Below, piece by piece: positions 15,510-53,476 of a DNA stretch of 64,000 bases (position 1 is the first letter of the stretch; each line of letters opens with the position of its first letter). The stretch is taken from positions 719 to 64,718 of the IMG/VR virus record IMGVR_UViG_3300036796_000061; one strand, written 5' to 3'. A program made the translations under genes and the position numbers. This stretch comes from a virus. Taxonomy: Duplodnaviria; Caudoviricetes. The notes below the pieces were generated by a model. It saw only the letters and a program-made list of their open reading frames with translations, had not been told where the DNA came from and searched no databases.

Positions 15510-15858
15510 GTTACGTCCTCCTTTCCGGACTGATGTCCGATAATTACCGATTTGCTTCTATACTATAGTGCGTGAGAATGCATATAAGTCAAGGTAATAA
15601 CGGTAGGTATCCGCAGTTATTACCGTTAAGTCTTACGACTTAAAAACATAGCAAGCCGCCACTGACGTGACGACCTTGCCTACTATATCCCCTTTTCGCT
15701 AGCCCTTTAACTAAAACGAATAGTTGGCGCCGAATGAACCACGCTCTTAGGTGAATGGAGGCGCAGGTACTTAGAATACGTTTGTCTGATTAAGAAGGAT
15801 AGAAACGCGAAAAACCCCCACAAACCGCGTCATATCAACGTTTGTAGAGGTTTTCGTA

Positions 15859-15912
15859 TGCACCGTAAAAGCAGGGTATTTCGCCAATATTGCACCGTAA
15901 AAGCAGGGTATT
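15859..15912. repeat. Two exact 22-bp direct repeats (iteron-like)
   Basis: TGCACCGTAAAAGCAGGGTATT at 15859-15880 and 15891-15912, 32-bp period, abutting the stop of the Rep-like gene. Confidence 0.9.
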
Positions 15913-15914
15913 AT

Positions 15915-26148: not shown

Positions 26149-26236
26149 CCTTATTAATAATGCCGATTAAGAAGTGAAAGTCGCGCAGTTTCTGGCGCCT
26201 TACTTAATAATAAGAACGAGAATCGAAAGTCGCGCA
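26149..26236 (-). promoter_or_regulatory. Two tandem copies of the putative phage-sigma promoter
   Basis: TGCGCGACTT-TCGATTCTCG-TTCTTATTATTAAGTAAGG and the variant TGCGCGACTT-TCACTTCTTA-ATCGGCATTATTAATAAGG, upstream of phoH. Confidence 0.7.
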
Positions 26237-35634: not shown

Positions 35635-36159
35635 CGGCACTTATTCATCCGCGCATCCACCGTACTAACTCCGCCAATTCTTCGCGGATTGTGATGCCTA
35701 GAAATCCTAACGCCAGGACTGCGCTGAACCATACAAATATGTTCACTTGTCTGCTCTCCTTCCGTAAAACTTTGCGTATTGAATAATGATTTGCTGGCGC
35801 TTGACGTCTGCCAGGCTTACGACTTTTGCGCTCATCCTAATCGCACTCCTTTGATGCTTCGGATTTTTACGTTCTCAGCCACGTAGCCCGTTTCGTAGCG
35901 AATCGGATCCTGCTCATAGCGTGCGATTTTGCGGTCCAGCGACGTTTGCTTTCCAGTTTTGCGGGTATACTGTGAATATGACGGTTTCATTACATAACCT
36001 CCGTTAGATTGATTTATTGGCGAAAGTATCGTAGTATAGCGTTAGTGAAATAATGTCGCTAATTGGCGATATATTCTGTATGGCATTAACTGGGCATCTG
36101 CCCTATAATAAGAAAGAAGGCGAGTGCGACGTAGTGCCTAAATGCCGCACCCCTTATTT

Positions 36160-36771
36160 TTAAAGCGCAACTAGATAGTCGCGGAAATCTCCGTGCTGTT
36201 TAGTACTAAATTTGCCCGCCAGGCGATTTAAAGCGCGTATTACTTTTGAATGGTGAACCCCTAATTCCTTCGCGATTGCCGTCGCTGTTGGTTTCGGGTG
36301 GTTAAGGAACGTTCTAACGACGCCAATCGTTATTTCGTCCGCACCTTCTAGGAGAGAGTCGATCAGCGCCAACTGATCGGCTTTTTTCTTTGCGATTACC
36401 GCGTTTTCTAAGTTGAACTCATCGGCGATTTCGAATCGGGAGGTTGCCGCCTCGTCATCATCGTTTGCCGCTTCGTAAACTTCGAATTCCCTTCTCCTTT
36501 TCGTCATTCCGTAAATATCTTGCCGTTTCCTATAAATGCTCCGATTAAGGAAGTTAATAAAGTCGCCTCGTCCGTCGTATGCCGCCAAGCATCTCATCAA
36601 GACATCTTCGTAAGCTGCGGTGATTTCTGATTCGTTCGATCTGACCGACTGTGCTACCGTTCCAAGACTTCGCCACCCCTTCGCTATAACTTCGTAAATT
36701 TCAGCGAAACTTTCGTCACTTCGTTCTGACTTGTATCGAATCACCATGTTATTTAATTGGTTGTTTTCCAT
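36160..36771 (-). CDS. Phage-encoded RNA polymerase sigma factor (sigma70/ECF-like)
   Basis: Region 2-like (ITAAYEDVLMRCLAAYDGRGDFINFLNRSIYRKRQD) and region 4 HTH (TATAIAKELGVHHSKVIRALNRL); 203 aa. Confidence 0.8.
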   Translation of the reverse strand: MENNQLNNMVIRYKSERSDESFAEIYEVIAKGWRSLGTVAQSVRSNESEITAAYEDVLMRCLAAYDGRGDFINFLNRSIYRKRQDIYGMTKRRREFEVYEAANDDDEAATSRFEIADEFNLENAVIAKKKADQLALIDSLLEGADEITIGVVRTFLNHPKPTATAIAKELGVHHSKVIRALNRLAGKFSTKQHGDFRDYLVAL

Positions 36772-36793
36772 CGTAACACTCCTTATTTTGCGT

Positions 36794-36832
36794 CCTTACT
36801 ATATAATAAGAATGAGTTGGGTAAGTCGCGCA
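36794..36832 (-). promoter_or_regulatory. Putative phage-sigma promoter upstream of the sigma gene
   Basis: TGCGCGACTT-ACCCAACTCA-TTCTTATTATATAGTAAG. Confidence 0.7.
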
Positions 36833-36883
36833 GTTTTTATAAATCTTTTTTTATTTACGTAAATTCACGTAACTTATAAACTT

Positions 36884-36948
36884 ATAATAGCACCCACTTT
36901 AGCCAACTATTGGAAAGTTTAGAGTTTTATATTTTTTTAAAAACTTTC
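36884..36948 (-). promoter_or_regulatory. Extended -10 promoter with an abutting palindromic operator (candidate AimR box)
   Basis: GAAAGTTT-N20-AAACTTTC at 36913-36948; TGcTATTAT at 36892-36884; no usable -35. Confidence 0.55.
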
Positions 36949-36967
36949 AACAATTTTCCATTTAAAC

Positions 36968-36997
36968 AAAAAAAAAAAAGAAGAGCCTAAGCCCTCC
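36968..36997 (-). terminator. Intrinsic terminator after aimP
   Basis: GGAGGGC-TTAG-GCTCTTC followed by T12. Confidence 0.85.
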
Positions 36998-37029
36998 TTT
37001 TGTGACTGCTTTATTATTTTATACCTTGA

Positions 37030-37218
37030 TTATAGTCCGCCTGTTCCTGGGTCTTTCTTAGCCACTACTGTTCCTGTTCCTACACTTAATCCCCCTGTCC
37101 CCGGATCTTTTTTTGCTAATTCTACAAGCCCCTTAGCTTCCTCAATTTTATTGAATCCTGCAATCCCACCTAAAACCAATACACCAACAAATACCATACT
37201 TAAAACGATTTTCTTCAT
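37030..37218 (-). CDS. aimP: Arbitrium-like pro-peptide with two AKKDPGTGGL copies
   Basis: MKK plus hydrophobic signal peptide; C-terminal DPGxGG-type peptide; directly downstream of the RRNPP receptor gene. Confidence 0.85.
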   Translation of the reverse strand: MKKIVLSMVFVGVLVLGGIAGFNKIEEAKGLVELAKKDPGTGGLSVGTGTVVAKKDPGTGGL

Positions 37219-37241
37219 CGAATTCCCATCCCCTTTTTATA

Positions 37242-38378
37242 TTATTCGAAAAATAACAGGTCAGCCATCGGCTTAAACATTGGGTCATCCTTTAATTGAC
37301 TATATGGTAGATTCGCGTAAAATCTGTCTCCTTTCTTATTTATAAAGTAAATCAACGATTGCATGAAGAGAGTTTTATCACCAGTCGCTAATCCTTTGTA
37401 ATAAAGGTTGAAACCGTTGACTCCTCTCTCATCTACCACCTTGTCAAGAAGTGAAATCGAAACTCGTTTATCCCCGTTTAAAGCCAGATAGTGAGCCTGT
37501 TCAGAGATGTCGACTATTTCAGGTTTTTGCTCATGTTTACACCAAAAGTTCTTGATAAATGGAATATCGTGATTATCCACTATATCAGCTTCTTCGTTTC
37601 GGTTGTTACGTATAAGCATTTCCCTGAACTTCATGATGTTACTCACGCACTTATCATAGTTGTTAAACAAGTACGACATCCCTACTATATAATAAGAATT
37701 AGTTGTGGAAGTCGCGCAAAAATCCATAGAAATAATTTGTTCTGCGTGGTTTCTTGCTTCCTCATTGTTGTTGTGGTTGTAAAGATGGATATAAGAATAA
37801 AGCTCTTTTATTCGAACTTGGTAAGAATCCTTGATGAAGTCTGCTTTTAAACTCGCTAAGGAAGATTCTAGACCATTGAAAATATTCGCCATTGAACTGT
37901 ACTCGCGGTTCCTGTTTCGGCAGGTTATCTCCAGGATCCTCATAAGTACAATAATTTCAGGACTTCTTCTTTTGAAAAGTCGTATCCTTTCTAAAATTAC
38001 CGACAAATCCCCTCCTTCTAGGTACATTAATACTAAGCTATATCCTTCGTACCATTCTTCCAATCCACTCTTACTTCTTACCTTCTCTAACAATGCCCTT
38101 AATTCCTTTATGTGCTTATTAGATGAAAGAAATTCCAAAGAGTATTTAAGGTTTATAGGTTGATTAAATTCTAAACACAAATCCTTGAAGATTCGGGCGT
38201 GTTGTTCTTTAAATATGTACTTAGTTATTTTCAATTGAGTTTGGAATTTAATCTCTGTACCTTTCTTCGCATGAGAAAGTGTACTTTTATCAACTTCAGC
38301 AGCTATTGCAATATCCGTCCAACTTACTTTTGTAGGAAGCTCATCTAAGGCATTTTCAATTGTTTTTACTAACAACAT
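37242..38378 (-). CDS. aimR: Arbitrium-like RRNPP peptide receptor/transcription factor
   Basis: 378 aa from ATG 38378; N-terminal HTH; TPR-like helices (NSYYIVGMSYLF); C-terminal GDRFYANLP; followed by the pro-peptide. Confidence 0.85.
   Translation of the reverse strand: MLLVKTIENALDELPTKVSWTDIAIAAEVDKSTLSHAKKGTEIKFQTQLKITKYIFKEQHARIFKDLCLEFNQPINLKYSLEFLSSNKHIKELRALLEKVRSKSGLEEWYEGYSLVLMYLEGGDLSVILERIRLFKRRSPEIIVLMRILEITCRNRNREYSSMANIFNGLESSLASLKADFIKDSYQVRIKELYSYIHLYNHNNNEEARNHAEQIISMDFCATSTTNSYYIVGMSYLFNNYDKCVSNIMKFREMLIRNNRNEEADIVDNHDIPFIKNFWCKHEQKPEIVDISEQAHYLALNGDKRVSISLLDKVVDERGVNGFNLYYKGLATGDKTLFMQSLIYFINKKGDRFYANLPYSQLKDDPMFKPMADLLFFE
37682..37718 (-). promoter_or_regulatory. Putative phage-sigma promoter embedded in aimR
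   Basis: TGCGCGACTT-CCACAACTAA-TTCTTATTATATAGTAG, nearly identical to the copy at 36794-36832. Confidence 0.65.
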
Positions 38379-38399
38379 ACTATCCACTCCCATTCGTAT

Positions 38400-38495
38400 A
38401 TTGACTCGTTTAACGTGTCACCTTGTCCTTAGCATATCACGGCTCACTTAAGGAGTCAATAACTTATTGACACTTTTTATGAGTCAATATATAAT
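38400..38495. promoter_or_regulatory. Back-to-back SigA promoters with repeated operators
   Basis: Plus strand: TTGACA(38467)-17-TATAAT(38490). Minus strand: TTGACT(38459)-17-TG.TATGCT(38436). Four TATTGAC(T/A)C half-sites. Confidence 0.8.
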
Positions 38496-38519
38496 AAAAA
38501 TATAAGGAGATGGTGATGA

Positions 38520-38720
38520 ATGTTAACATCAAATTTAAAACTAATATTGGATTCTAGAGATATTAAAATCCGTCAAGCTGCCCGTGATATCGATTATAGA
38601 TTTGAATCAGTGAGATCTCTATACAATGATGAGTTAGAGCGTTATCCTCGGGAGCTTCTTTATAAAATTTGTATATACTTAGATATTACTTTAGATGATT
38701 TATTTTCCTTAGATAGGTAA
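38520..38720 (+). CDS. XRE/Cro-CI HTH regulator, probable prophage repressor
   Basis: SNLKLILDSRDIKIRQAARDIDYRFESVRSLYND...LDITLDDLF; divergent from aimR. Confidence 0.8.
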   Translation: MLTSNLKLILDSRDIKIRQAARDIDYRFESVRSLYNDELERYPRELLYKICIYLDITLDDLFSLDR

Positions 38721-38780
38721 TTATTGCTATACATCTATATGTTGCTGTAGAATAGAAAACGCATCACGCTCGGAGGTGGT

Positions 38781-39020
38781 ATTACGGTACGCATCGGAAA
38801 ATGCCGTATACAGGAACTTCTGGATGAAAAAGGCTGGACGCAGCAAGATCTAGCAGACCGAACCAGCATGAGCAGTTCATTTATCAACGATAAAATACGC
38901 AATCGAGGTAAGAACGGAATGTGGCTAACTAGCGCCAAGAAAATTTCCGTTGCCCTCAATTGCGAGATCGATGATTTATACGAATGGATTCCTGAACGCG
39001 AAGTTCCTGGCGGTAAATAG
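38781..39020 (+). CDS. XRE HTH regulator with non-AUG start (not in the ORF track)
   Basis: (I)TVRIGKCRIQELLDEKGWTQQDLADRTSMSSSFIND...ALNCEIDDLYEW; SD GGAGGTG before ATT/ACG; in-frame TAG just upstream. Confidence 0.7.
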   Translation: MTVRIGKCRIQELLDEKGWTQQDLADRTSMSSSFINDKIRNRGKNGMWLTSAKKISVALNCEIDDLYEWIPEREVPGGK

Positions 39021-39043
39021 AAACGAAGTAGTATGGTCGACCC

Positions 39044-40042
39044 TCACTGTGTGGCGGCCGTACCGCGCAGCCCGATACGTAAATTAACGGATATCACGCC
39101 ACAAGATTCCGACTTTTCCGCCGATTCCCTCAGCGATTCCACTCCGTACTTTACCAACGCCTCATTTGCGTCCTTACAATCTCCGCCTACATACGCCTGC
39201 CTACAGCGCACATATCCGCGAAGCTCTTCCGCAACTTCCTGCCGTAACTTTTCGCCAGCCTTATCGTTATCCGTCGCAATTATCAATTCTTCGATCGGAC
39301 TCCGGATAATTAAATCGCGTTTCTTCCTATTAAAAGCGACGCCGCCAACCGCAATTGCCGGATAGCCTGCCGTCATCCAACTGAGCGCATCGATTTCCGC
39401 CTCGCACAGCACGGTCGTCCGCCCCGCCAGGCCAATTCCGTAGACTAAATTGCGAATCGGCTCGGCCCCTTTCGCGTAGTAAAACGTCTTGCCGTACGTT
39501 TTCCTATACTTAATATTCGCTAGCTTACCAGTCATGCCCCGCCAAGGCAATACAACTGCTCGCTGTTTCTCGTCATATAGAACGCCCGCCGACCGCTGCA
39601 CCTCGTCGGCTATTCCACGCCCACGCAAGTAATCGCAAGGCCCTGCGGTGAATCCCGCCAGCACGTCTTCCTTGATCGCTTGCCTCTTGCGTTCAAGTTT
39701 CAGTTGGACCGGCCGAAGCACGAGTTCATTCGATGTTTCCGCAAAGCTGTACGTTGCTAATAAATACTCCTCGGCCTCCTCGTACGTTTCGTTGCGAAGG
39801 AATGCGAGTAGCTTAACGAAATTGCCAGACGCCCATTCTGCGTCATACGCCCCACTGTCAGCCCATACGCCCGCCATTTCGCCGGTTAGGTTAACGAAGA
39901 AGCTCGGTGTGCGATCGTAGCGAAACGGTGATGCTGCGATTAGCTTATCGGTGGACCAGCGCGGCCTTACCCAGTCGAACGGTTGCAGCTCCGCCTCGAC
40001 GTCTATGTCGACGTCCTGGCCGCGAATCTTTACGTTTGCCAT
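39044..40042 (-). CDS. DNA primase (Toprim)
   Basis: SPFRYDRTPSF, LCEAEIDALS, IATDNDKAG and KDANEAL motifs. Confidence 0.9.
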   Translation of the reverse strand: MANVKIRGQDVDIDVEAELQPFDWVRPRWSTDKLIAASPFRYDRTPSFFVNLTGEMAGVWADSGAYDAEWASGNFVKLLAFLRNETYEEAEEYLLATYSFAETSNELVLRPVQLKLERKRQAIKEDVLAGFTAGPCDYLRGRGIADEVQRSAGVLYDEKQRAVVLPWRGMTGKLANIKYRKTYGKTFYYAKGAEPIRNLVYGIGLAGRTTVLCEAEIDALSWMTAGYPAIAVGGVAFNRKKRDLIIRSPIEELIIATDNDKAGEKLRQEVAEELRGYVRCRQAYVGGDCKDANEALVKYGVESLRESAEKSESCGVISVNLRIGLRGTAATQ

Positions 40043-47769: not shown

Positions 47770-47808
47770 CCTTACTTAATAATAAGAACGAGAATCGAAA
47801 GTCGCGCA
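47770..47808 (-). promoter_or_regulatory. Putative phage-sigma promoter at the head of the replication operon
   Basis: TGCGCGACTT-TCGATTCTCG-TTCTTATTATTAAGTAAGG, identical to the copy near 26198-26236. Confidence 0.75.
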
Positions 47809-47856: not shown

Positions 47857-48024
47857 TCAGTCGTATTTTCGGTAGCAATCGTTTACAGCTTTAGCTATTT
47901 CTTTTAATACAGGATTCCCTGCCTTCTGCTGAGACCTGTACCACTCCCTACGCTCTTCTTCGGTCATATCCATTAATGGTGAATGTATTATTATCGTTGT
48001 ATTACCAATCATAAACTCTCGCAA
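47857..48024 (-). CDS. Candidate recombination directionality factor (55 aa, not in the ORF track)
   Basis: SD GGAGGGG then TTG: MREFMIGNTTIIIHSPLMDMTEEERREWYRSQQKAGNPVLKEIAKAVNDCYRKYD; divergent from the serine integrase. Confidence 0.6.
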   Translation of the reverse strand: MREFMIGNTTIIIHSPLMDMTEEERREWYRSQQKAGNPVLKEIAKAVNDCYRKYD

Positions 48025-48050
48025 ACTAACCCCTCCGCATTTCGTATTCG

Positions 48051-48087
48051 TTACTATACAATAAGAACCAAAACGGAAAGTCGCGCA
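48051..48087 (-). promoter_or_regulatory. Putative phage-sigma promoter driving the candidate RDF
   Basis: TGCGCGACTT-TCCGTTTTGG-TTCTTATTGTATAGTAA. Confidence 0.7.
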
Positions 48088-48147
48088 GGATTAAGGAATA
48101 TTGCTAAGATGAGTAGTGTCGATTATAATATGGATAGAGGTGGTTAT

Positions 48148-49722
48148 ATGAGTCGTCCTACGGAACTCGATATTTATATATATTTGCGTAAATCTCGAAA
48201 AGACATAGAAGAAGAGAAAAAGGTGCAAGGTTCCGGAGAATCTTATGATACGCTCCAACGGCACCGCCAGACGCTTTTCGCAATCGCTAAAAAGGAACGC
48301 CATAATATCGTAGCTATATATGAAGAAGTTGTATCCGGCGAATCCGTTACGGAGCGCCCGCGCATCCAGGAAATGTTGCGCTCGGTCGAATCCGGACATG
48401 TTGACGCCGTGCTCGTAATGGACCTCGACCGACTTGGACGCGGAGACATGCTCGACCAAGGCTTACTCGACCGCGCCTTCCGCTATTCAGCTACGAAAAT
48501 CTTAACGCCAACCGAAGCGTACGACCCGTCGTCAGAAACGTGGGAGCTTGTTTTCGGGATTAAATCGCTAGTCGCCCGCGAAGAATTAAAAGCGATTACC
48601 CGTCGGATGCAGCGCGGTCGTGTGGCGTCGGCTAGTGAAGGTAAATCGATTTCTAAAATCCCGCCGTACGGATATTTACGTGATGAAAACCTGCGATTGT
48701 ATCCTGACGTTGAAACCGCATGGGTTGTTAAGAAGATGTTCGAAATGATGCGCGACGGGCACGGACGGCAAGCTATTGCGCAAGAATTGGACAGGCTCGG
48801 CATCAAACCTCCGAATACGAAACGGGAAACATGGTCACCGAGCAGTATTACCGCCATCATAAAGAACGAAGTATATCTCGGCACAATAATATGGGGCCAG
48901 GTAAAATACGTTAAGCAAAACGGTAAGTATCAGAAGAAAATGGTGCCACGCGAAAACTGGACGATAAAAGAGAACGCGCATGATCCGTTAGTTTCGCCGG
49001 AGCTCTTCGAAGCCGCTAACCGTGCACACTCCGGCAGATGGCGCCCTTCAACAAACGTGAGCAAGGGTTTGAAGAATCCCCTCGCTGGTATACTTATGTG
49101 TGCTGTCTGCGGATTTTCTATGCTGTATCAACCCCGCCCTAATCGACCTAATGATGCTATTAGGTGTGTTCAACCTGGGTGTAAAGGTATCCAAAAGGGG
49201 TCATCGATAAGTCTCGTCGAAGCTAGGGTAATTAAAGCCTTAGAAGGAATGATTAAAGATTTAGAGATCGAAGCCGAAGATGCTACCCCTAATGATGCGG
49301 AAGAAATTTCATATAAAAGATTGCTCATTGATAAAAAAACTGAAGAGATTTCTGAGTTAAACGCGCAAAAAAGTAACCTTCATGATTTTCTTGAACGGGG
49401 TATATATGATACTGATACCTTTTTAGAGCGTCAGAAAAATCTAAATAAACGTCTTGATGTAATGCAGTCTGAGGTTCGTAATTTAGAAAGCGAAATACAC
49501 AAGGATAATATACGGAATCAAAGCGTCGAAGATTTTCTTCCTAAGCTACGAAACGTCGTAGAGGCATATGGTAATACGTCTGATATCAGAGTCAAGAACG
49601 CATTGTTAAAATCAGTATTAGATAAGGCTACTTACCTCCGGAAGAAGGAGTGGACTAAGCAGGATCAGTTCGTAATTCAATTTTATCCGAGGGTGTATCC
49701 AGACAAAGTGGGACCGTCCTAA
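48148..49722 (+). CDS. Large serine recombinase (phage integrase)
   Basis: IYIYLRKSR catalytic Ser, VMDLDRLGRG, G....PPYGY recombinase domain, CAVCG...CVQPGC zinc ribbon, coiled coil; ATG 48148 after GAGGTGG. Confidence 0.95.
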   Translation: MSRPTELDIYIYLRKSRKDIEEEKKVQGSGESYDTLQRHRQTLFAIAKKERHNIVAIYEEVVSGESVTERPRIQEMLRSVESGHVDAVLVMDLDRLGRGDMLDQGLLDRAFRYSATKILTPTEAYDPSSETWELVFGIKSLVAREELKAITRRMQRGRVASASEGKSISKIPPYGYLRDENLRLYPDVETAWVVKKMFEMMRDGHGRQAIAQELDRLGIKPPNTKRETWSPSSITAIIKNEVYLGTIIWGQVKYVKQNGKYQKKMVPRENWTIKENAHDPLVSPELFEAANRAHSGRWRPSTNVSKGLKNPLAGILMCAVCGFSMLYQPRPNRPNDAIRCVQPGCKGIQKGSSISLVEARVIKALEGMIKDLEIEAEDATPNDAEEISYKRLLIDKKTEEISELNAQKSNLHDFLERGIYDTDTFLERQKNLNKRLDVMQSEVRNLESEIHKDNIRNQSVEDFLPKLRNVVEAYGNTSDIRVKNALLKSVLDKATYLRKKEWTKQDQFVIQFYPRVYPDKVGPS

Positions 49723-50177: not shown

Positions 50178-50984
50178 TCAATCGCCTATCCAATCGTAAA
50201 TATGGTTTTCCTTTGCGTAGATTTCACGGCTAGCTTTCGATGTTGCCTCCTGCCAAGCGCCGAACAAGTAGTTGTCCAAGTTGCGGATTTTACCTTGCTT
50301 CGCTTTGAGTATCGCGTTGTGCCACGTCGTTACGAATGGCTCCGGATTATCCTCGATCATCAAGTCGCGATGGATGGAGCGTTTTGCCCGAAGCAATATC
50401 CCGTAATACTTATAAATATCTTCGGCGTTAAAGTAAATTGACATTGCGTCGAACATTTCGCTTGGCAACGCTTTTTTCAGTGCGCTGGCCGGAATTGACG
50501 TGTCTTTTAAGTTCTTGTTTTTTAATAGATTTATAGAATCCGATGGTTCGTTTACGATTTTCGTAGGCTCAGCGTTACTCTCCGTAGGCGTTTCGCCAAC
50601 CTGCCGACTGGACAAGCTCGACTGGTCATTCGAAGGTAAAACGTTACCCGCCGGCTTTTCTTCGACGGGCTGAATCACGATTATGTTCGCGCCTTTTCCT
50701 CCGTTAACTTTCCGTGCCGTGGCGATTTTCTTAACGATGCCCAGCTCGGCCAGTTTCGCCAGGGCCCTCCGTGCCGTCTTCTCGCTCTTTTCGATGAGTC
50801 CTGCGAGCGTGGCCGCCTTTAGGTGCGCAGCTCCCGCAAACTTAACGGCGTAGCGTGCGATAGTTTTCAGCGTCAGCCGATCCGTGTCATTTAATTCGTA
50901 TGTATTTCGTTTGATGTGCGTATAAATTGCGCTGTTTAATTCCTGCGTTGAGGAGAACGATTGGTGCTCCGCTAGATAGTGCAT
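50178..50984 (-). CDS. HTH_36 winged-helix protein, replication-initiator-like
   Basis: FSSTQELN...YAVKFAGAAHLKAATLAGLIEKSEKTARRALAKL...GGKGANI. Confidence 0.7.
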   Translation of the reverse strand: MHYLAEHQSFSSTQELNSAIYTHIKRNTYELNDTDRLTLKTIARYAVKFAGAAHLKAATLAGLIEKSEKTARRALAKLAELGIVKKIATARKVNGGKGANIIVIQPVEEKPAGNVLPSNDQSSLSSRQVGETPTESNAEPTKIVNEPSDSINLLKNKNLKDTSIPASALKKALPSEMFDAMSIYFNAEDIYKYYGILLRAKRSIHRDLMIEDNPEPFVTTWHNAILKAKQGKIRNLDNYLFGAWQEATSKASREIYAKENHIYDWIGD

Positions 50985-51344: not shown

Positions 51345-51989
51345 TTACCCGATGACTACTTTTACGCTGGAACTACTCGGAGCAACTGGCGCAGGTTTCT
51401 TCGGAGTCAGCGACCGGACAAACTCCGTAAATGATTCCGCCTGGAATATCTTAAACGGATAGTCTCCGTCGATTGCGTAGCGTTGGTCGGACAAAATAAG
51501 TATATGCGGAAAGGGCTTCGGCATCGCCCCGCTGTTGTACAAGTCGACGTAACGGTCCAGTTTTTCCGCCATTAACTTTTCGCTGTAAATCGTCCGCTGT
51601 ACCTCGATGAAGAACGGCGTCCTGCGATATTTACAGAATATGTCCGGCTCAGCCCCGGAACCTTTGCACCCATACTTCGGCTCGACCAAGAACGATTCAA
51701 TTTCGCCAAGCTTGCGGATTTCTTTATATACGTTGAGGATGGCGAGGAAATGGCCGATCTTAGCGCTGTTCTTTTTCATGCTGACCTCGGGCCCGAAGTA
51801 GCAATACGGAATGAAGGCCGTCGACCGCTGAATCTCGCCATCCCGTAGCAACCGCAGCAGCACGTTATTTGCAGAGTATCGCGGATTCTTCAGCTTGCCG
51901 AAATGTAGCTCCGCAATCGAATCACGGTCCATTACGCGAAACCTCGCCAGGTCTTTGATTATCGCTTTATCTCTCTTCGTTACCGGCAT
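51345..51989 (-). CDS. Replication-relaxation (Replic_Relax) family protein
   Basis: TKRDKAIIKDLARFRVM N-terminal HTH; H.L...; EPDIF...FFIEVQRT PD-(D/E)XK-like core. Confidence 0.8.
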   Translation of the reverse strand: MPVTKRDKAIIKDLARFRVMDRDSIAELHFGKLKNPRYSANNVLLRLLRDGEIQRSTAFIPYCYFGPEVSMKKNSAKIGHFLAILNVYKEIRKLGEIESFLVEPKYGCKGSGAEPDIFCKYRRTPFFIEVQRTIYSEKLMAEKLDRYVDLYNSGAMPKPFPHILILSDQRYAIDGDYPFKIFQAESFTEFVRSLTPKKPAPVAPSSSSVKVVIG

Positions 51990-53127
51990 CGAAAAACACG
52001 TCCTTTTCGGTTATCTGTGGCGCAGGCTCCTGCTCCGGCGTTACTTCTTTGACGGGGCCCTTCGCAATGATGTGCGGGGCGAGTAGAGCTTTCGCCTTGT
52101 CAGTCGTCAGGTATGGCGCCTGCACTTCGCGTACCTTATCGCTGTTCATTATAAACCGGCCGCTGACTTCGAGCATCTCCGCTCCTGGCGTATTTACGAT
52201 GCGAGCCTCCATTTTATCACGCAGCTTAAAGCCCATGCTCACAGTTAAGTTAGCTCGGATTGTCGTATCTAAAACCTTCGCATTTGGGCGTTGCATGGAC
52301 AGCATGGCGAATACCCCTAGCGTTCGACCTATCGCCACCACCTCCGTTAATATCTCCATGATTTCCTCGTTCTTCCGCAGCATTACGAATTCATCGATGC
52401 AAACTACGATGTACGGGCGGCGCTGCTCTGCCGGCAAATCGTCGACATGGCTGACTTCAAATACCTCCGTTAAATTGCTTCGCTCGTCGAGTTCCTTCTT
52501 TATATGAACGAGCATCTTCGCGATGTCTTTCGCGCTACTCAGCACGCACTGAACGTGTTCAACATTTCGGAATAGGTGAAACTCCGACTTCTTGCAGTCA
52601 CCGAGGTAAAGCTGTAGCTCGGAGGGCTTTTTCGTACGGATTAGCGTAGTCAGAATCGACCGGAGCTGCGTCGACTTCCCGCTCCCAGTTTCGCCGGCAA
52701 TAAGGATGTGCGGCTGTTTACGTAAGTCGAACGAGACGAATCGCCCTAGCCGATCTTTTCCGCAGATAATACCTAACCCGTGCTTCCGTACTACCTCCGC
52801 TATCTCTTGCGCATCGTACGTTAATTGCTCCGTCATGGCTTCGGAATATATCGTGAGTACATAGCGCTTCAAATCGCCTTTAAGCTCTAAATGCCTGCCG
52901 AAATGCTGGCGGAAAACATACTCCTTCTTAGCGACTTCCTTCGGATCCATTCCGTTCAGTAGCGTAAATACAAAACGCAGGGATTCGTCGGTTTCGTTAA
53001 TACTGACGTCATGGATAATCGGATATAGTGGCCGGTCCTTGGCGTTCTTATAGAATAAGCCTGCGCTTCGAAACGCTTGGATAAGTCCGCGCCTCGCCTT
53101 CGCCTTATACATCATTTTTCGTAACAT
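51967..53127 (-). CDS. FtsK/SpoIIIE-family ATPase
   Basis: PHILIAGETGSGKST, VVCIDEF, GRTLGV...QRP motifs; start MLRKMM after GGAGGCGG. Confidence 0.9.
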   Translation of the reverse strand: MLRKMMYKAKARRGLIQAFRSAGLFYKNAKDRPLYPIIHDVSINETDESLRFVFTLLNGMDPKEVAKKEYVFRQHFGRHLELKGDLKRYVLTIYSEAMTEQLTYDAQEIAEVVRKHGLGIICGKDRLGRFVSFDLRKQPHILIAGETGSGKSTQLRSILTTLIRTKKPSELQLYLGDCKKSEFHLFRNVEHVQCVLSSAKDIAKMLVHIKKELDERSNLTEVFEVSHVDDLPAEQRRPYIVVCIDEFVMLRKNEEIMEILTEVVAIGRTLGVFAMLSMQRPNAKVLDTTIRANLTVSMGFKLRDKMEARIVNTPGAEMLEVSGRFIMNSDKVREVQAPYLTTDKAKALLAPHIIAKGPVKEVTPEQEPAPQITEKDVFFDAGNEER

Positions 53128-53146
53128 ACGTCCGCCTCCTTCTATT

Positions 53147-53476
53147 TTATAGCGTAAATAAGAACCATCCGATAAAGCTGTACGCTGCGACCGGAAATAT
53201 AAGGTGCGTCGCCGTTTCGATAAAGGAAGCCAGCGCTTCGTATCCGTAGGCTGCCGCCGTGGTTTCCGCAAGGTGAGACAGCATAGCGAACGCTCCTACT
53301 CCGATGACTACTGCGTACAGGCCGGCGATTTCCGGCGACATGTGCAAGAAACTGCTTAGCGTGACTGAAGGAATGAATCCGTAGATGGGCGTCCTTAGCT
53401 TTGGCTTTGGCGCCTGTTTCCGATGATTTCCCGCCATAAACGTCTTGAAGTCGATTACCTCTATTTTACTTCGCAT
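53147..53476 (-). CDS. Two-TM membrane protein
   Basis: Start MRSKIEV after AAGGAGG; hydrophobic C-terminal helices. Confidence 0.65.
   Translation of the reverse strand: MRSKIEVIDFKTFMAGNHRKQAPKPKLRTPIYGFIPSVTLSSFLHMSPEIAGLYAVVIGVGAFAMLSHLAETTAAAYGYEALASFIETATHLIFPVAAYSFIGWFLFTL

Follow-up and report, generated by a model that had tools for sequence, protein, structure and literature searches.

Arbitrium is known to act through three different outputs, namely the aimX RNA in SPbeta, an AimX that mimics an antitoxin in phi3T and an AimX that serves as antirepressor of AimC. Phage sigma factors and autoregulated sigma factors of the extracytoplasmic function (ECF) type are likewise familiar, as in the gp28 and gp33/34 cascade of SPO1, and in the Rap-Phr systems of Bacillus subtilis a SigH-dependent phr promoter reportedly lies inside rap. 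Downstream of aimP, the SPbeta-type receptor AimR binds inverted repeats of 6 bp that are separated by 25 bp (PMC9232636). For phi3T and SPbeta, AimR has been shown to be an antiterminator rather than a classical activator: it acts at the terminator immediately before its site, the transcripts concerned start at the aimP promoter and an altered terminator-to-site distance abolishes the effect (PMC10769878). Published arbitrium architectures comprise the SPbeta-like type, the extended aimX/aimC/aimL type and an unresolved 'RP' class, none of which has a sigma factor, and the text of that survey does not mention sigma (Kabel et al. 2025, bioRxiv 10.1101/2025.11.23.689978). Our literature searches turned up no paper connecting arbitrium with a sigma factor. 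Here we analyse a stretch of 64,000 nucleotides (nt), hereafter the window, which is nearly all of the 64,718-bp virus record IMGVR_UViG_3300036796_000061 from a soil metagenome, and in which an aimR-aimP pair is followed by the gene of a sigma-like protein that we call SigL.

From the comparisons described below it seems somewhat probable that free AimR lets transcription reach SigL, and that SigL reads its own and other early promoters. The elements that a sequence-only reading of this locus had listed, being an XRE gene, back-to-back promoters, aimR, aimP, a terminator, a palindrome, an extended -10 and a gene for a protein of 203 amino acids (aa), were all found in place (Table 1). The connections that it had drawn between them fared less uniformly.

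Receptor and peptide

AimR matches both Pfam PF22871 (E=2e-56; 191.8 bits, cut-off 26.7) and NCBIfam NF038310 (E=5e-64; 216.6 bits, cut-off 70) above the curated cut-offs, so the family assignment made from the letters alone passed the profile comparison, and it aligns with solved AimR structures at E=1.5e-16. By these matches it is an AimR-family receptor of tetratricopeptide repeats with an N-terminal helix-turn-helix (HTH) domain. The protein measures 383 aa from the first ATG; counted from the second ATG, whose ribosome-binding site is the better one, it measures 378 aa.

The aimP frame starts 24 nt past the aimR stop and encodes a hydrophobic N-terminus followed by two identical copies of AKKDPGTGGL, that is, a DPGTGG(L)-type peptide. 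The two 30-nt codings differ by seven synonymous changes, and both copies therefore appear to be selectively maintained. The match with NF033802 reaches 17 bits, under the cut-off of 35. At the same position relatives encode DPGxGG, KVGG or PRGG peptides. As a short precursor directly 3' of aimR with a peptide of the xxxxGG/GA type, the product is by its sequence a secreted AimP. Doubled peptides were also observed in relatives, as DKVGG/EKVGG twice (L009, L015, L020) or YDPGxGPIGG twice (L013, L016), and in several of the doubled-peptide relatives the peptide lies away from the extreme C-terminus.

SigL as a probable divergent sigma factor

The sequence-only reading had called the 203-aa protein a sigma factor. 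Established sigma models gave this call no backing, since neither SigL nor 31 closer relatives match one in Pfam, NCBIfam or PHROGs, and the only matches obtained are weak ones to generic HTH models (TrmB, IclR, MarR; E=0.002 to 0.03). What sustained it were the predicted fold and the family profile. The AlphaFold model, built on 32 homologues, has a predicted local distance difference test score (pLDDT) of 81 and consists of two helical domains joined by a disordered linker. All 50 best Foldseek matches in the PDB (50/50) are sigma factors, with weak E-values of 4e-3 upward. VIA-align places residues 1-97 on the sigma2 domains of SigI6, SigW, SigK and SigC (Z 8-9.3; root-mean-square deviation 2.2-2.9 A over 80-92 residues) and residues 124-198 on sigma4 domains (Z about 7.2), so the predicted fold has sigma2 followed by sigma4, the domain content of sigma-70 group 4.

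Searches of PDB sequences with SigL as single sequence or with a first profile gave noise and a broader family profile was required. The family was represented by 396 sequences after clustering at 50% identity, and sigma4 is its near-invariant part. A profile of the distant members had RpoE (E=7e-4), Mycobacterium tuberculosis SigE and B. subtilis SigW (E=4e-3) as best matches among PDB sequences, and Pfam Sigma70_r2 is matched by 3/29 distant members, the best at E=1.5e-5. Because of the predicted fold and the family-profile match, rather than the Pfam and NCBIfam models, we consider SigL likely to be a divergent ECF-like sigma factor.

That SigL is instead a two-domain HTH activator or antirepressor which resembles sigma2 and sigma4 seems very unlikely. 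The missing Pfam and NCBIfam matches and the weak TrmB, IclR and MarR matches would suit such a protein, and for helical folds Z-scores of 7 to 10 do not decide the matter, as all-helical proteins can reach this range by chance. However, each of the two domains has its matches among sigma domains, in the expected order and separated by a disordered linker, the Foldseek matches are uniform, the RpoE, SigE and SigW profile matches and the Sigma70_r2 matches of distant members tie the family to sigma factors at the level of sequence, and the DNA motif that goes with SigL, described below, is bipartite with a fixed spacer like a -35/-10 promoter, unlike a dyad operator.

Gene order and distribution

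Read along the minus strand the locus comprises helicase, primase, aimR, aimP, a terminator, about 190 bp without open reading frame (ORF) and SigL, with XRE2 and XRE1 lying on the plus strand between primase and aimR. The order helicase, primase, XRE2 (opposite strand), AimR, AimP, SigL and a protein resembling single-stranded DNA-binding protein (SSB) was found in 18/23 IMG/VR relatives, and the same order, with AimR before SigL, in 14/14 Bacillaceae species genomes that carry SigL and in two Peribacillus genomes. A synteny survey of aimR-aimP-sigma among Bacillaceae phages had been proposed as a check, and since the layout recurs in dozens of related phages it is not due to chance. The cultured temperate B. 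subtilis phage 268TH002 shares the helicase-XRE2-AimR-AimP-SigL-SSB-like order. Its GenBank entry labels the two proteins 'AimR transcriptional regulator' and 'RNA polymerase sigma factor', and its genome announcement does not comment on the AimR and sigma neighbours. Cultured B. subtilis phages of the family also include 268TH007 and phi18-2, and the family is widely distributed among Bacillaceae of soil (Peribacillus, Neobacillus, Niallia, Cytobacillus, Mesobacillus, Bacillus).

AimR is absent from 9/9 Paenibacillus/Salibacterium relatives and from phage Mgbh1 (the host comparison covered genome loci L030-L052, 14 from Bacillaceae and nine from Paenibacillus/Salibacterium), and in most AimR-less relatives XRE2 is directly divergent from SigL. 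Among these genome loci the cassette occurs in Bacillaceae only, XRE2 and SigL in both groups, and therefore the arbitrium cassette appears to have been grafted into an older XRE2/SigL switch. This host split agrees with the view that arbitrium is limited to hosts able to process and take up peptides of this kind. Within the window, too, XRE1-aimR-aimP looks like an AT-rich cassette inserted between XRE2 and SigL, because GC content is 33-37% across 36780-38760 against about 50% in the flanks.

The DNA between aimP and SigL

The sigma-like gene occupies the slot in which aimX would be expected. No minus-strand ORF of at least 20 aa with a start codon lies in the window's aimP-SigL gap, no conserved ORF was seen there in relatives, Rfam gave no match in 36000-39200 at E up to 1, and the leader from P1, an extended -10 promoter in the gap, to SigL folds no better than shuffles (z=-1.07). 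A small aimX was thus not found, and a separate ORF or RNA as the real AimR target, which the sequence-only reading had named as a danger to its own proposal, did not turn up. SigL is the first ORF past the candidate AimR site at every cassette-bearing locus.

This candidate site is a dyad, GAAAGTTT-N20-AAACTTTC, with arms of 8 bp and a spacer of 20 bp, located directly past the aimP terminator. It was found once in the window and 0/100 shuffles gave a match. A scan for perfect inverted repeats is not significant at most single loci because the DNA is AT-rich; the clear pattern came from anchoring on the extended -10 and from comparison within the AimR clade. The AimRs closest to that of the window are those of L038, L039 and L042 (42-50% identity), and for L033 and L036 the best match is a related clade (33-35% to the L016 type). 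All five keep the half-site CTAAACTTTCCA and the N20 spacing, have peptides ending in DPGTGG or DPGGGG, and carry TGnTAnnAT 19-21 nt downstream of the dyad; for the clade as a whole the dyad-to-TG distance is kept at 19-25 nt. Phages with KVGG peptides have a different dyad, GTAAACA-N20-TGTTTAC, at the same place and at the same distance to the extended -10. The combined p for this clade-wise pattern of dyad and extended -10 is 0.007, over loci that are not independent.

The order of terminator and dyad matches the published antiterminator layout (PMC10769878). The sequence-only reading had assumed that AimR is an activator, as in its account of SPbeta and phi3T; the geometry here fits antitermination at least as well, and class II activation is left as a possible second mechanism because the extended -10 is conserved. 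The palindrome TTACGTnAATTnACGTAA that it had pointed out, between P1 and the SigL-proximal promoter P2, is unlikely to be bound by AimR. This palindrome looks like the operator of a small repressor rather than an AimR site, for which the long-spacer dyad upstream appears to be the better candidate. A counterpart, AACGTGAATTCACGTT, lies at the same place in L012. The palindrome was also considered as a terminator and ruled out, as no U-tract follows it on either strand.

Several observations weigh against AimR acting on SigL. Within the window alone the dyad is weakly significant (p=0.03 to 0.125 by shuffles), it co-travels with XRE1 as well as with AimR, so that the comparison cannot assign the binder, and the strong terminator after aimP could simply insulate the cassette from SigL. 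P2 occurs in Paenibacillus-type relatives that lack AimR, so SigL can be activated by other means than arbitrium, and AimR cannot be the sole determinant of SigL expression, SigL having its own promoter that AimR-less relatives keep. It is conceivable that arbitrium and SigL are adjacent and unwired, with SigL under P2 and XRE2 only and an insulated cassette that acts on a different target such as XRE1/XRE2 or an untranslated leader RNA from P1. Such an arrangement would agree with P2 and a divergent XRE2 in most AimR-less relatives and with a cassette whose composition differs from that of the backbone, as expected of an inserted module. We nevertheless hold it to be unlikely. The conserved adjacency of terminator and dyad and the conserved spacing from dyad to extended -10 point at SigL, as does its place as first ORF past the site. 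Moreover, the centre-to-centre distance of the dyad, 28 bp, is more in keeping with AimR dimers, for which the figure in SPbeta is 31 bp (PMC9232636), than with an XRE protein of 66 aa, and the likely operator of XRE1, made of GAGTCAATA repeats, is different and sits elsewhere.

A putative phage-specific promoter class

P2 belongs to a motif (TGCGCGAC, 16 nt, TATTAT) of which the window has six copies, 6/6 on the minus, that is the coding, strand. A fuller form reads TGCGCGACTTnC, about 9 nt, TTCTTATTAT(A/T)(T/A)AGTAAGGAC, and a terminator lies directly before 3/6 copies. A 40-nt direct repeat, 36793-36832 versus 37679-37718 with 90% identity, belongs to the same motif family. Since the class heads early operons, including the integrase-adjacent and replication operons, the proposed link between the sigma factor and lytic genes is supported by the comparison. 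The structural genes have no motif copy upstream, which implies late promoters of another kind. Downstream of SigL, at 36100-36135, lies a degenerate look-alike of the -10 half, TTCTTATTATAGGG, that lacks the TGCGCGAC box and may be a decayed seventh copy.

Five complete relatives contain 3-5 copies each, 20/20 on the coding strand and with comparable inter-copy spacings along the genome, and a reversed control pattern had 0 matches in them. Upstream of SigL nearly all relatives, including most of those that lack AimR, have an A-tract, TG(C/T)GCGA, about 17 nt and TATnAT. Within the motif the -35-like box does not vary, as sigma4 hardly does within the SigL family, and the -10-adjacent bases are phage-specific and common to all copies of one phage.

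An XRE2 operator was considered as explanation of the motif and ruled out: L001 and L014 have identical XRE2 proteins, yet the motif is present in L014, which has a SigL of the family type, and absent from L001, in which SigL is only 25% identical and has a different sigma4 helix. In the sigma4 recognition helix of the family, the residue that follows HH co-varies with base three of the box. All loci with HHS have TGCGCG (17/17), and where HH precedes E, Y, M or Q the box is TGTGCG in 8/9 loci, among which are three Bacillaceae lineages beside the Paenibacillus clade (Fisher p=6e-6, uncorrected for phylogeny). Like this value, all cross-locus statistics in this study ignore shared ancestry and are to be read with that reservation. 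Host SigA is a poor candidate reader, given how little the box TGCGCGAC resembles TTGACA and that the -10 lacks a preceding TG. Together the sequence comparisons point to SigL as the reader of the six-copy class.

The motif might instead be read by a host sigma factor, or be a repressor's combined operator and promoter, with AimR controlling SigL and SigL driving other (late) genes. Phage sigma factors classically drive middle and late genes, as do gp28 and gp33/34 of SPO1. The absence of motif copies before structural genes can be cited in favour of this scheme, and in AimR-less relatives the first SigL has to be transcribed by some polymerase from a P2-type promoter, which poses a problem if P2 is read by SigL alone. 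We conjecture that in these phages weak host recognition of P2 is followed by positive feedback. The scheme seems distinctly unlikely in view of the unusual box and the lack of TG before the -10, of a motif that goes with SigL type rather than XRE2 identity, of the co-variation between sigma4 helix residue and box base, and of the -10-proximal bases that all copies within a phage have in common.

The putative promoter inside aimR

One copy of the SigL-type promoter lies within the aimR coding sequence, in codons FCATSTTNSYYIVG. The motif is found at the same codons in 15 diverged AimR genes of the phage family, which are 25-35% identical. The alanine codon in the motif is GCG in 15/15, against 20% at the other alanine codons of those genes (probability about 5e-11 if the genes are treated as independent), and AimR of SPbeta and Katmira has no Cys-Ala at this position. 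The internal copy resembles the SigL-proximal copy of its own phage over those of other phages (permutation p=0.0002), and the rare -10 variants of L015, L017 and L005 are common to internal and SigL-proximal copies. Because of the GCG bias, the conserved codons and the within-phage resemblance, the element is, as judged from these alignments, under selection as DNA. A remnant second aimR was considered as source of the 40-nt repeat and rejected, as only a promoter-length stretch is shared and it lies at the same codons in 15 AimRs.

Transcription from the internal promoter is predicted to start (37670-37690) just a few bases ahead of an in-frame ATG, that of 'GMS' (Met237), and 11/15 relatives retain this ATG. 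Speculatively, a near-leaderless mRNA could encode a C-terminal AimR fragment that lacks the DNA-binding domain.

Proposed mechanism

From gene identities, synteny, the conservation and co-variation of cis-elements and the predicted fold we infer each regulatory step of the following model. Peptide-free AimR would bind the long-spacer dyad just past the aimP terminator. Bound AimR would let RNA polymerase reach SigL by antitermination of transcripts from upstream of aimP, as in phi3T and SPbeta; alternatively, or in addition, it might act as an activator of P1, the conserved extended -10 promoter that lies 20 nt past the dyad. SigL, with the host core polymerase, would then read the TGCGCGAC, 16 nt, TATTAT promoters. 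The copy before SigL would give self-reinforcement, the copy inside aimR, which reads into aimP, would give more signal once lysis is chosen, and the other copies would serve the heads of the integrase-proximal, replication and nucleotide-metabolism operons. Accumulated AimP, of the DPGTGG type and with two peptides per precursor, would inactivate AimR, remove the trigger and favour lysogeny.

A more elaborate version is tentative and seems less probable than not. In it, AimR antitermination releases the first SigL and SigL locks the lytic programme, and the aimR-internal promoter raises AimP with no increase in full-length receptor, while a C-terminal AimR fragment may soak up peptide or poison dimers. 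If AimR antitermination is true, transcripts from the aimR-internal promoter would also feed SigL.

Upstream regulators and other features of the window

XRE1 lies within the island of low GC content, and a gene at the same position is found in L026, L028 and phage 268TH002. Between aimR and XRE1 the rightward promoter is TTGACA-17-TATAAT (12/12) and the leftward one TTGACT-17-TATGCT with TG; a 24-nt inverted repeat embeds both. Besides three exact copies of GAGTCAATA there is one near copy, and the repeat is absent elsewhere in the window. By its arrangement it is likely an autoregulatory operator of XRE1 (or AimR). Repression of AimR by the XRE protein, the first arrow of the sequence-only reading, found no support. 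XRE2 is likely a repressor, and its homologues are divergent from SigL across relatives. In frame, neither ATG nor GTG nor TTG occurs ahead of residue 30 of its homologous region (38751-39020), and the sole candidate start is ATT at 38781, 4 nt past GGAGG. Relatives start with TTG or GTG at varying positions. XRE2 may therefore use a rare start codon or be a decaying gene.

The phage is a temperate siphophage with a large serine integrase and a record of 64.7 kb. Almost all genes of the window are on the minus strand, with the ribonucleotide reductase gene beyond DNA polymerase A in reading order. The SSB-like label is the annotation of the 268TH002 homologue and refers to a gene 3' of SigL, among small ORFs. 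A nucleotide search of GenBank phages with 35800-39100 gave no match.

The integrase, encoded on the plus strand at 48095-49722, matches the PHROG integrase family at E=3e-101. Its gene diverges from a 55-aa ORF (region 47857-49722) that has no family match and a SigL-type promoter upstream. This ORF may encode a recombination directionality factor, in which case excision may be under SigL control. A gene for an FtsK/SpoIIIE-like ATPase (51967-53271) and an HTH or replication-initiator-like gene (50178-50984) adjoin the integrase; a comparable insert of FtsK plus replication-relaxation genes distinguishes phage 268TH007 from 268TH002 (PMC9476937). Elsewhere, at 15855-15914 in the 405-bp gap upstream of 15509, there are two direct copies of AATACCCTGCTTTTACGGTGCA, after which comes a SigA-like TTGACT/TATAGT promoter. 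This region may serve the control of late genes or be linked to packaging.

Table 1. Position and strand of the features discussed, in window coordinates
Feature	Position	Strand	Remarks
SigL, 203-aa divergent ECF-like sigma factor (predicted; sigma2 + sigma4)	36160..36771	minus	predicted fold, family profile
P2, SigL-proximal phage-specific promoter (TGCGCGAC, 16 nt, TATTATATAGT)	36798..36832	minus	
Palindrome TTACGTnAATTnACGTAA between P1 and P2	36855..36872		operator-like
P1, extended -10 TGCTATTAT	36884..36892	minus	20 nt downstream of dyad; no usable -35
Dyad GAAAGTTT-N20-AAACTTTC, candidate AimR box	36913..36948		starts 19 nt past U-tract
Intrinsic terminator 3' of aimP	36968..37001	minus	11-bp stem then 12 U; -15.9 kcal/mol, z=-2.95
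aimP precursor, 62 aa	37030..37218	minus	signal-like N-terminus, doubled peptide
aimR, arbitrium peptide receptor	37242..38393	minus	PF22871, NF038310, solved AimR structures
SigL-type promoter copy within aimR, codons FCATSTTNSYYIVG	37679..37718	minus	about 460 nt upstream of aimP
Divergent promoter region aimR/XRE1	38394..38519		24-nt inverted repeat and three exact GAGTCAATA repeats; operator-like
XRE1, small HTH gene (66 aa) divergent from aimR	38520..38720	plus	Pfam HTH_26 E=1e-9
XRE2, backbone HTH regulator	38781..39020	plus	Pfam HTH_26
Toprim primase	40042-39044	minus	
DnaB-like helicase	41691-40333	minus	
DNA polymerase A	33382-31187	minus	small ORFs and SSB-like protein between SigL and polymerase
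Promoter copies, two in tandem (26236, 26187)	26149..26236	minus	past ribonucleotide reductase terminator, before PhoH-like gene
Promoter copy	47770..47808	minus	past terminator; head of helicase loader-helicase-primase operon
Promoter copy	48045..48087	minus	before 55-aa ORF divergent from large serine integrase

Comparison with known systems

The locus resembles SPbeta and phi3T in having a receptor of the AimR family, AimP directly downstream, a terminator followed by a long-spacer AT-rich dyad, and a putative output gene in the same orientation. It differs in several respects. The gene in output position encodes a 203-aa sigma-like protein instead of a small AimX, whether peptide or RNA, the arms of the dyad measure 8 bp and its spacer 20 bp where SPbeta and phi3T have 6-bp arms and 25 bp, and a conserved extended -10 lies past the site, where no promoter was found in phi3T. 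The backbone is also unrelated: it is about 65 kb long, encodes a DNA polymerase of its own and showed no sroDEF or yop genes. With the systems of Kabel et al. 2025 (bioRxiv 10.1101/2025.11.23.689978) it has in common that arbitrium is placed in a switch of repressor and lytic operon, and that the early lytic operon contains replication genes. In contrast to extended arbitrium (aimX/aimC/aimL), there is neither a small aimX nor a convergent aimC 3' of aimP: the next gene past aimP is SigL, in the same direction, and the two XRE genes, the HTH genes of the locus, lie upstream of aimR and are divergent. The lytic operon here starts with a sigma factor, and in that classification the layout would fall under 'RP' or 'other'.

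A sigma-wired arbitrium, to which the sequence evidence points, would be an unpublished route from a phage-phage signal to the lytic decision. If true, a sigma factor in the output slot is a fourth arbitrium output mechanism, in which peptide concentration is converted directly into reprogramming of RNA polymerase and positive autoregulation supplies the commitment step that a reversible receptor lacks. The cultured B. subtilis phages of the family make the idea testable in a tractable host. Beyond this, aimR with its internal promoter illustrates clearly how a regulatory element can constrain a coding sequence as DNA, and the contrast between Bacillaceae and Paenibacillus shows a signalling module grafted onto an existing repressor/sigma switch.

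With SPO1 and the ECF-type sigma factors SigL would share that a small protein of sigma2 and sigma4 redirects the host core polymerase and that its gene carries its own cognate promoter. Here, however, the sigma gene stands at a temperate lysis-lysogeny switch behind a quorum-sensing receptor, and no anti-sigma gene is evident. The nearest parallel to the aimR-internal promoter is Rap-Phr, where likewise the receptor gene contains a promoter for an alternative sigma factor, from which the peptide gene alone is transcribed; the difference is that the alternative sigma factor would here be encoded by the phage and would itself be the output of the receptor, closing a feedback loop.

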